DNA of 24,423 nt from a virus (Duplodnaviria; Heunggongvirae; Uroviricota; Caudoviricetes): the IMG/VR virus record IMGVR_UViG_2531839474_000007, positions 1 through 24,423 of that record. The stretch is one strand, 5' to 3'. The position numbers were made by a program, and so were the translations under genes. This document shows positions 11,293 to 11,730 of the stretch, one piece after another. The notes beneath the pieces are model-generated. The model searched no databases. It saw only the letters and a list, made by a program, of their open reading frames with translations, and had not been told where the DNA came from. Every line of letters begins with the position of its first letter. The stretch's first letter is position 1.

Positions 11293-11336
11293 GTTCACAG
11301 ATAAAACACTCTCCAGGAAAACCGGGGCGGTTCAAA

Positions 11337-11650
11337 GAGCCAGCGACTGACCTGAAAGAAGACGCTGGCTAAAAGGCCTTATATGTTTGTAGAGACTTAT
11401 TTTTCACAGACAGCAATGATGCCTGTCAATATATTATCAATATGCGGATTGTTTCAGTTACAGATGCTTTATTAAGGAAAAAAACAGCCAGCACTGACTT
11501 TCGGTGGAGAGGTGCTGGCTCAGAAGGATAGTTGGATTTCACATGATACTTATGCCTGGCGGTATATTTTCTGACAGACAGTGACGGGTGTTGTCAAGAT
11601 ATTGTGTCATTTATAACCTGAATCAGGGGAGGCCGGAATGTTATCTGGCA
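11337..11650 (+). repeat. two diverged tandem units of about 155 bp, each with a 5' hairpin (AGCCAGCG...CGCTGGCT; AGCCAGCA...TGCTGGCT) and an ACAGACAG...TGTCAA(T/G)ATATT box
   Basis: Hairpin 1 at 11338..11370, hairpin 2 at 11486..11520, with one compensatory base-pair change (G-C to A-T); box 1 near 11401..11435, box 2 near 11566..11605. Confidence 0.5.
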
Positions 11651-11695
11651 TTTTTAGCAGAGCCTGAATGCCATAATCACGGCTCCCGGAGTTGG

Positions 11696-11730
11696 CCGTC
11701 AGTGGGTGACACTGGCGGTTTTTTTGTTTT
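11696..11730 (+). terminator. strong rho-independent terminator about 45 nt upstream of the holin start
   Basis: 9-bp stem CCGTCAGTG/CACTGGCGG (one G-U pair), loop GGTGA, then T7-G-T5. Confidence 0.75.

Follow-up and report, generated by a model that had tools for sequence, protein, structure and literature searches.

The DNA analysed here, a stretch of 24,423 nucleotides (the window), comes from a lambdoid prophage of pathogenic E. coli and represents its late region. Its central part carries a NanS-p type sialate O-acetylesterase gene, a copy of the insertion sequence IS629, an intergenic gap, and the lysis genes S and R (Table 1). The spacer between S and R (11983-12669) is 687 bp long; it is shorter in H-19B (about 400 bp), and the two genes overlap in phage 434 and in E2348/69. 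Its minus strand has ORFs of 104 and 120 aa, neither of which matches Pfam, and the spacer is 100% conserved in many E. coli genomes (631 with a match), where its annotation reads only 'hypothetical protein'.

Several RNA elements lie upstream of the gap. A match to the sok antitoxin RNA (RF01794, 114 bits) at 3365-3539 (+) suggests that the prophage carries a hok/sok-type type I toxin-antitoxin module. The ALIL frameshift pseudoknot is found twice in identical form, at 2197-2313 (-) and 10360-10476 (+), a sign of two oppositely oriented IS629/IS3-family copies separated by about 8 kb; these bracket the hok/sok, tRNA, STnc100, and esterase segment and could permit its inversion or loss. The STnc100 match occupies the position held by PasD2 in E2348/69, and a common ancestor of PasD and STnc100 has been argued for in a 2026 preprint (Zhu, Shabalina and Storz, doi 10.64898/2026.05.13.724894). 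Local alignment of PasD2 with the window recovered only a 31-nt terminator-like stretch at 8049-8078 (+, 28/31 identical), and PasD2 was rejected as the RNA of the gap since nothing else of it aligns anywhere in the window.

Table 1. Features of the window at and around the gap between IS629 and the holin gene.
Feature	Position	Strand	Details
Three tRNA genes	6835-7081		
STnc100 (RF02076) match	7855-8027	+	100.8 bits; just 5' of the esterase gene
SASA/DUF1737 sialate O-acetylesterase gene (NanS-p type)	8165..10015	+	616 aa; Pfam SASA, DUF1737, DUF6645
IS629 target duplication	10022-10024 and 11335-11337		AAG, 3 bp
IS629	10025..11334	+	1310 bp; in the A-run that separates hairpin 1 from the esterase stop codon
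ALIL frameshift pseudoknot of IS629	10360-10476	+	
Unit-1 RNA, EcOnc52-type diverged relative of PasA	11335..11395	-	terminator hairpin 11338-11370
Hairpin 1, AGCCAGCG...CGCTGGCT	11338-11370		AGCCAG...CTGGCT type
Unit-1 promoter-like element	11398..11435	-	AT-rich stretch, TTGACA 11429-11424, 18-nt spacer ending TGT, GAAAAA
ACAGACAG box	11407-11414 and 11574-11581		
TGTCAA(T/G)ATATT box	11424-11435 and 11592-11603		
PasA variant sRNA gene	11562->11478	-	85 nt; terminator hairpin 11486-11520, U7 11484-11478
Hairpin 2, AGCCAGCAC...GTGCTGGCT	11486-11520		AGCCAG...CTGGCT type; 148 nt from hairpin 1
PasA seed GCCAGCACCU	11519-11510	-	unchanged; within the 5' arm of the terminator stem
PasA promoter-like element	11563..11603	-	TTGACA 11597-11592, 18-nt spacer ending TGT, CAGAAA 11573-11568
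GACAGACAG box, predicted PasB pairing site	11572..11595	+	best local duplex in the gap; inside the RIL-seq interval
Strong intrinsic terminator	11694..11730	+	11-bp stem 11694-11720, then U7; ends 46 nt before the S start codon
Class II (phage 21-type) holin gene S	11776..11982	+	Pfam Phage_holin_2_1 1.9e-32; PHROG holin families
Lysozyme gene R	12670-13203		

The native gap extends over 441 bp (11335-11775), from the right end of IS629 at 11334 to the start of S at 11776. The preliminary description found no credible ORF in it, and this holds: the ORFs wholly within the gap are at most 53 aa long, a further 109-aa GTG ORF overlaps S out of frame, the gap ORFs gave no match in Pfam or PHROGs, and no gene is annotated in the gap by the listed GenBank and RefSeq records of this locus. 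Two diverged tandem units of about 148 bp, each starting with a hairpin when read on the plus strand, were likewise borne out. Over 112 alignment columns they are 81% identical, with a score of 54 where shuffled sequences give 15.6 +/- 5.5 (z about 7), and the AGCCAG...CTGGCT pattern of the hairpins occurs at 2 sites in the whole 24-kb window against 0.01 by chance. Both repeated boxes are also present where they had been placed.

The gap is identified by published coordinates and a published probe as the already described pasA sRNA locus. PasA is an 85-nt Hfq-dependent sRNA of EPEC E2348/69 that was validated by Northern blotting (Pearl Mizrahi et al. 2021, PMC8550237). Its gene lies on the minus strand of NC_011601.1 from 743499 to 743415 (85 nt, the major form) or to 743264 (236 nt, the minor form), in the orientation '> < >' between E2348C_0688 and E2348C_0689, with EcOnc51 and EcOnc52 given as its EHEC homologues and GCCAGCACTGACTTTCGGTGGAGAG as its Northern probe (PMC8550237 Table S6). 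The esterase and holin genes of E2348/69 are on the plus strand, so PasA is antisense to both. In the window, the probe matches the plus strand at 11487-11511 in 25/25 positions and the minus strand nowhere; the RNA is therefore the minus strand, the reverse complement of the probe.

Comparison of window positions 11562->11478 (minus) with PasA of E2348/69 gave 74/85 identical nucleotides. The 11 substitutions are confined to nt 1-40, leaving the last 45 nt unchanged, and the mapped 5' end position is common to both. The order of esterase (+), gap, and class II holin (+) with PasA on the minus strand is also the layout of E2348/69 PP2 and of Sakai Sp12, where the gap spans 2237237-2237684. This agrees with the statement that pasA and pasC sit between the sialic-acid esterase and the holin-lysozyme operon, in a preprint that names YYZ-2008 (NC_011356) as a PasA phage (doi 10.64898/2026.05.13.724894). 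The window variant is probably the one called 'PasA-2', judged solely from how its substitution pattern fits the preprint's description; the preprint gives PasA-2 as common in ST11/O157 (doi 10.64898/2026.05.13.724894).

Comparison with the EHEC prophage sRNA loci, a check suggested in the preliminary description, gave matches to two Hfq-crosslinking peaks, EcOnc51 and EcOnc52, located in prophages Sp12 and Sp4 of EHEC O157:H7 Sakai, respectively (Tree et al. 2014, PMC4104026 Table S2). The EcOnc51 peak sequence is found exactly at window 11534-11458; it is on the plus strand in Sakai Sp12, where holin and esterase are on the minus strand, and is thus antisense to both. EcOnc52 in Sp4 is antisense to the esterase gene, and its first 61-62 nt are unit 1 (11395->11335): window 11395->11334 equals the first 62 nt of the peak exactly, the base at 11334 being the terminal A of IS629, which matches by coincidence. 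These two peaks support the identity and the strand of PasA independently. The Hfq-dependent prophage sRNA proposed earlier for the gap was consequently right in kind, as shown by the reports of PasA, EcOnc51, and EcOnc52 in EHEC and EPEC, and wrong in strand, the RNAs being on the minus strand. Expression is established in two pathotypes for identical or near-identical sequences, from which that of the window copy is presumed by homology.

The gap is 95-100% identical to the corresponding gap in phage 434, H-19B, YYZ-2008, and Stx1a phages. Of 5426 complete E. coli genomes, 699 contain it, the median copy number in these being 5, and it occurs in 29 phage records, mostly of Stx1a phages, a distribution that fits the one published for PasA. 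An Infernal scan, which had been proposed as a means of identification, recovered no family at a meaningful score: Rfam 15, including AgvB, AsxR, Esr41, and STnc100, gave no match to 11335-11775 at the gathering score, and at E up to 10 the gap returned three chance-level matches only, two of them to snoRNA families and one to a plant-virus element. Rfam 15 thus appears to lack a PasA model.

The two hairpins had been read as the beginnings of their units, but both are minus-strand intrinsic terminators and mark RNA 3' ends. T-runs follow the stems on the minus strand only (U7 for hairpin 2), which makes the hairpins 3' terminators of minus-strand RNAs. On this strand, the PasA terminator forms a 9-bp stem followed by U7 (dG -16.3 kcal/mol, z -2.7), and the unit-1 hairpin reaches -16 to -17 kcal/mol. 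Both were missed by the terminator scan, whose 8-nt loop limit is exceeded by their apical parts, and were folded directly instead. For comparison among loci, a sample of 123 copies was assembled from 119 pattern-retrieved stretches of viral contigs, the reference loci, and the window, and 17 distinct variants were aligned. The 9-bp stem is 97% paired across these variants, while all slid-register controls drop to 20-50%. In two stem pairs both partners are exchanged: the PasC/unit-1 type differs from the PasA type by GC<->AU, and a third type shows CG<->UA. The compensatory G-C to A-T change noticed in the preliminary description is therefore real, with pairing kept in the 17 variants, but it belongs to minus-strand terminators. 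In addition, PasC-type stems carry a U-G pair whose plus-strand equivalent is an A-C mismatch, which favours the minus strand as the folded one.

Unit 1 is a diverged tandem relative of PasA. Both units occur in 82/123 sampled loci and a single unit directly after the esterase stop codon in 33/123 (the PasC type and the third type); for the other 8/123, neither landmark, the unit-1 box or the esterase end, lies within reach. In E2348/69, the PasC locus can be aligned to unit 2 and is without the approximately 148 bp of unit 1, so that in EPEC prophage PP2 carries unit 1 and PP5 lacks it at pasC. RIL-seq in EPEC gave chimeras with ends at 743267-743294, in the 3' arm of hairpin 1, and unit 1 is always the 3' partner in them, with five significant partners including escD; this indicates that the 3' end of the unit-1 RNA is bound by Hfq and engaged in pairing. 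In the literature, the unit-1 stretch is treated as the 3' part of the 236-nt minor PasA form (PMC8550237), and pasA copies are said not to be tandem duplicates, as full-length copies lie at least 22 kb apart (doi 10.64898/2026.05.13.724894). The latter statement arises because only full-length copies were counted. No description of a diverged tandem neighbour of PasA was found in the accessible parts of the PasA literature, namely the 2021 paper and the 2026 preprint.

Sakai Sp4, which retains unit 1 and has lost its PasA unit to IS629, bears on whether unit 1 has a start site of its own. An Sp4 peak where the PasA unit is missing is suggestive of such a site; unit 1 is identical in Sp4 and Sp12, so that Sp12 reads could be assigned to Sp4, and the peak is no proof of a separate promoter.

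The repeated boxes of the gap, the second of which had been read as containing a plus-strand promoter, are instead promoter-like on the minus strand, where they read AATAT(A/C)TTGACA ... CTGTCTGT(CA/G)GAAAA. A perfect TTGACA lies 30 nt 5' of the published 5' end of PasA, and the geometry of the element puts +1 at 11562, the published 5' end of PasA and PasC. For unit 1, the start predicted in the same manner is near 11395, which is the 5' edge of the EcOnc52 peak. The arrangement TTGACA-N18-CAGAAA is kept in 103/103 loci chosen by the hairpin alone, among which the spacer and the bases just 5' of +1 vary. From the perfect -35 and its spacing, we infer that the boxes are putative minus-strand promoters with a weak -10 (3/6). 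The power of both the covariation and the promoter conservation is limited by the low divergence among the loci. This reading of the PasA 5' end as a primary start disagrees with the preprint, according to which it is made by cleavage of a longer transcript (doi 10.64898/2026.05.13.724894).

The insertion of IS629 has altered the far end of the locus. The inverted ends of the element are TGAACCGCCCCGG and CCGGGGCGGTTCA, and uninterrupted loci read GCATAATAAAAAAAGAGCCAGCG at this place. The U-tract of unit 1, CUUUUUUUAUUAU in intact loci, has been cut to CUUUGAAC, and the minus-strand tail after hairpin 1 in the window is now CUUUGAACCGCC instead of a U-tract. Judged from these changes, IS629 probably makes the unit-1 RNA, or the long PasA form, terminate and bind Hfq less well, and transcription may continue into IS629 on the strand opposite its transposase gene. 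The gap has been a recurrent target of insertion sequences, which entered it at various points: ISEc13 follows the plus-strand terminator in PP5 of E2348/69, IS629 follows unit 1 in Sakai Sp4 and precedes hairpin 1 in the window, and another IS629 in opposite orientation sits inside unit 1 in one viral contig.

In lambdoid late operons, the lysis genes are read by Q-modified polymerase. The plus-strand terminator in front of S is strong (dG -18 kcal/mol, z -4.7), is identical in 111/123 sampled loci, and is annotated as a terminator in phage 434. The preliminary description had recognised it at 11696..11730 as the end of an sRNA; the structure is real, and it is not the end of the known sRNA. 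EPEC RNA-seq gave baseMean values of 102 for the esterase, about 3.5 for the holin, and about 3.2 for the lysozyme, a drop of roughly 29-fold from esterase to holin that lends indirect support to termination in vivo. The terminator most likely shields S-R-Rz from upstream (esterase/moron and IS629) transcription without Q.

As a whole, the gap is very probably the pasA locus of Stx1/434-type lambdoid prophages, which combines antisense Hfq sRNAs with a sense-strand terminator. The minus strand would be transcribed against the late operon and yield short Hfq-binding sRNAs that end at intrinsic terminators. PasA (11562->11478) acts in trans as a base-pairing RNA through its seed GCCAGCACCU, which forms the 5' arm of its own terminator stem. 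The unit-1 RNA (about 11395->11335) would be produced either by read-through of the PasA terminator, as in the 236-nt minor form, or from its own TTGACA promoter; as IS629 took most of its U-tract, its termination and Hfq binding would probably be impaired in the window. On the plus strand, the terminator would stop esterase and IS629 transcription before S-R-Rz, leaving the lysis genes to be read by Q-modified polymerase only.

Published target data accord with this role of PasA. It has 41 RIL-seq partners and ranked 12th by interaction number in EPEC, with the target motif CUG(A/G)UGCUGG carried by its partners (PMC8550237), and the placement of the seed in the terminator stem has been termed unusual (doi 10.64898/2026.05.13.724894). 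Both esterase genes of E2348/69 are PasA targets by RIL-seq and MEME, with the site about 30 nt before their stop codons (PMC8550237). The 3' end of the window esterase gene has CTGGTGCTGG at 9983-9992, which is the same site and fits the motif. The predicted PasA-esterase duplex is modestly better than background, and the interaction rests on the published RIL-seq.

Alternatively, the main action of PasA and unit 1 would be antisense regulation in cis, which lowers lysis-gene expression in lysogens through perfect pairing with the late transcript from esterase gene to S or through convergent transcription. Both RNAs are fully complementary to the sense RNA across 11335-11562, their transcription is convergent with the esterase gene, and the holin RNA of EPEC is about 29-fold below the esterase RNA, all as a cis effect would have it. 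However, the 41 partners of PasA are mostly trans-encoded and share a common seed motif, the plus-strand terminator alone is able to explain the drop in RNA, and the data contain no link between PasA and lysis. Predominant cis action is thus regarded as unlikely.

Less probable still is the RNA first proposed for this gap, a plus-strand sRNA of about 90-100 nt running from about 11624 to the terminator at 11694-11730. The terminator has the long U-rich tail of the Hfq-binding kind, the segment 11620-11735 (+) folds well (-42.1 kcal/mol, z -2.7), and according to RIL-seq a Hfq-associated plus-strand RNA exists in the gap. Against this, the candidate promoter of TTGTCA (11591-11596) and TATAAC (11612-11617) has a spacer of 15 nt, outside the range of 16-18 nt, and is absent from the promoter-scan output; its TTGTCA overlaps, base for base, the perfect minus-strand TTGACA. 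The plus-strand RIL-seq fragment begins at about 11545, 5' of the start that had been suggested, and, in contrast to sRNAs, takes the 3' position in only 0-3% of its chimeras. The Sakai sRNA-candidate table lists no Hfq peak on the late sense strand near the Sp12 copy, the one copy mapped, and among the sRNAs reported in the accessible parts of the EPEC and EHEC papers on these prophages a plus-strand sRNA of the gap is absent. Neither the promoter nor the approximately 90-nt sRNA starting at about 11625 was therefore sustained; the short spacer, the lack of a Sakai peak, and the target-like behaviour of the RIL-seq RNA all tell against them. Finally, it is scarcely credible that the hairpins serve as plus-strand terminators or stability elements of the esterase mRNA and that the units are a neutral duplication without RNA product: hairpin 1 does lie immediately after the esterase stop codon and DNA hairpins are largely strand-symmetric, but on the plus strand neither stem has a T-run after it, the U-G wobble is compatible with the minus strand only, and the Northern probe, strand-specific Hfq-crosslinking, and RIL-seq put the RNAs on the minus strand.

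What the plus-strand RNA of the gap most resembles is a target. In 774 chimeras its RIL-seq interval, 743482-743611 (window 11545-11674), is joined to PasB, an sRNA encoded by a different prophage, and like other targets it takes the 5' position in 97-100% of chimeras. A 25-nt sliding scan placed the best local duplex at the GACAGACAG box, for which the PasB partner sequence is UUGUCUGUC; its energy of -23.1 kcal/mol is only about 1.7 sd lower than the background (-17.9 +/- 3.1). The long-range duplexes that whole-length RNAduplex predicted for PasB and the gap did not surpass shuffles (mean -38 kcal/mol). By this modelling, the box on the late-operon sense RNA is a likely pairing site of PasB. 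The chimeras suggest a cross-prophage sRNA contact with the lysis-gene leader, and no discussion of them was found in the accessible text of the RIL-seq literature. If true, sRNAs of co-resident prophages meet on the RNA just 5' of the holin gene. A fuller model can be offered only tentatively, in which the pasA locus would be a tandem sRNA pair with an independently transcribed unit 1 (seed GCCAGCGUC) and a sense leader that serves as target or sponge of PasB at the GACAGACAG box.

The preliminary description thus correctly detected an already described sRNA locus and did so on the wrong strand. EHEC and EPEC genomes carry PasA in multiple copies, and annotation with the correct strand and ends avoids the pursuit of a probably non-existent plus-strand RNA. 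The diverged tandem relative of PasA has been missed by copy-number surveys that use full-length BLAST matches. Together with the consensus -35 boxes, the probable ability of IS629 to disable the downstream terminator, and the plausible PasB site near the holin gene, it is a modest addition that leaves the general picture of prophage sRNAs unchanged.

Among the known sRNAs of the same prophages, the anti-sRNAs AgvB and AsxR and the STnc100/PasD family, for which (AgvB, AsxR, and STnc100) Rfam models exist, resemble PasA in being Hfq-dependent and in lying in the moron region downstream of PR'. Unlike PasA, they lie 5' of the esterase gene and not between esterase and holin, and AgvB/AsxR were ruled out as the RNA of the gap by this position. 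HnrS (EcOnc10-12, PMC13502914), a 66-nt multicopy sRNA of the late region, was rejected as well, its Sakai sequence having no match in the window.

As regards the tandem arrangement, OmrA/OmrB of E. coli and PrrF1/PrrF2 of Pseudomonas are, like the window units, two adjacent diverged copies in the same orientation. The window units are pair-like in that both possess a terminator and a promoter-like box, with distinct seeds in the two units, GCCAGCACC versus GCCAGCGUC. In contrast to OmrA/B, the published 236-nt PasA form suggests read-through into the second copy. EcOnc51 and EcOnc52 (PMC4104026) are peaks and not mapped transcripts, neither having been Northern-tested in that paper; in Sp4, IS629 removed the PasA unit, whereas in the window it removes the U-tract of unit 1 instead. 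The closest relatives are PasA, PasA-2, and PasC (PMC8550237; doi 10.64898/2026.05.13.724894), which like the window RNA are encoded antisense between a SASA esterase and a class II holin. The window locus differs from PasA of E2348/69 by the 11 substitutions in the 5' 40 nt and by the far end broken by IS629, and shares with it the 3' 45 nt with terminator and seed, the 5' end position, and the exact probe; all the defining features of PasA that can be tested on sequence are found at the window locus.
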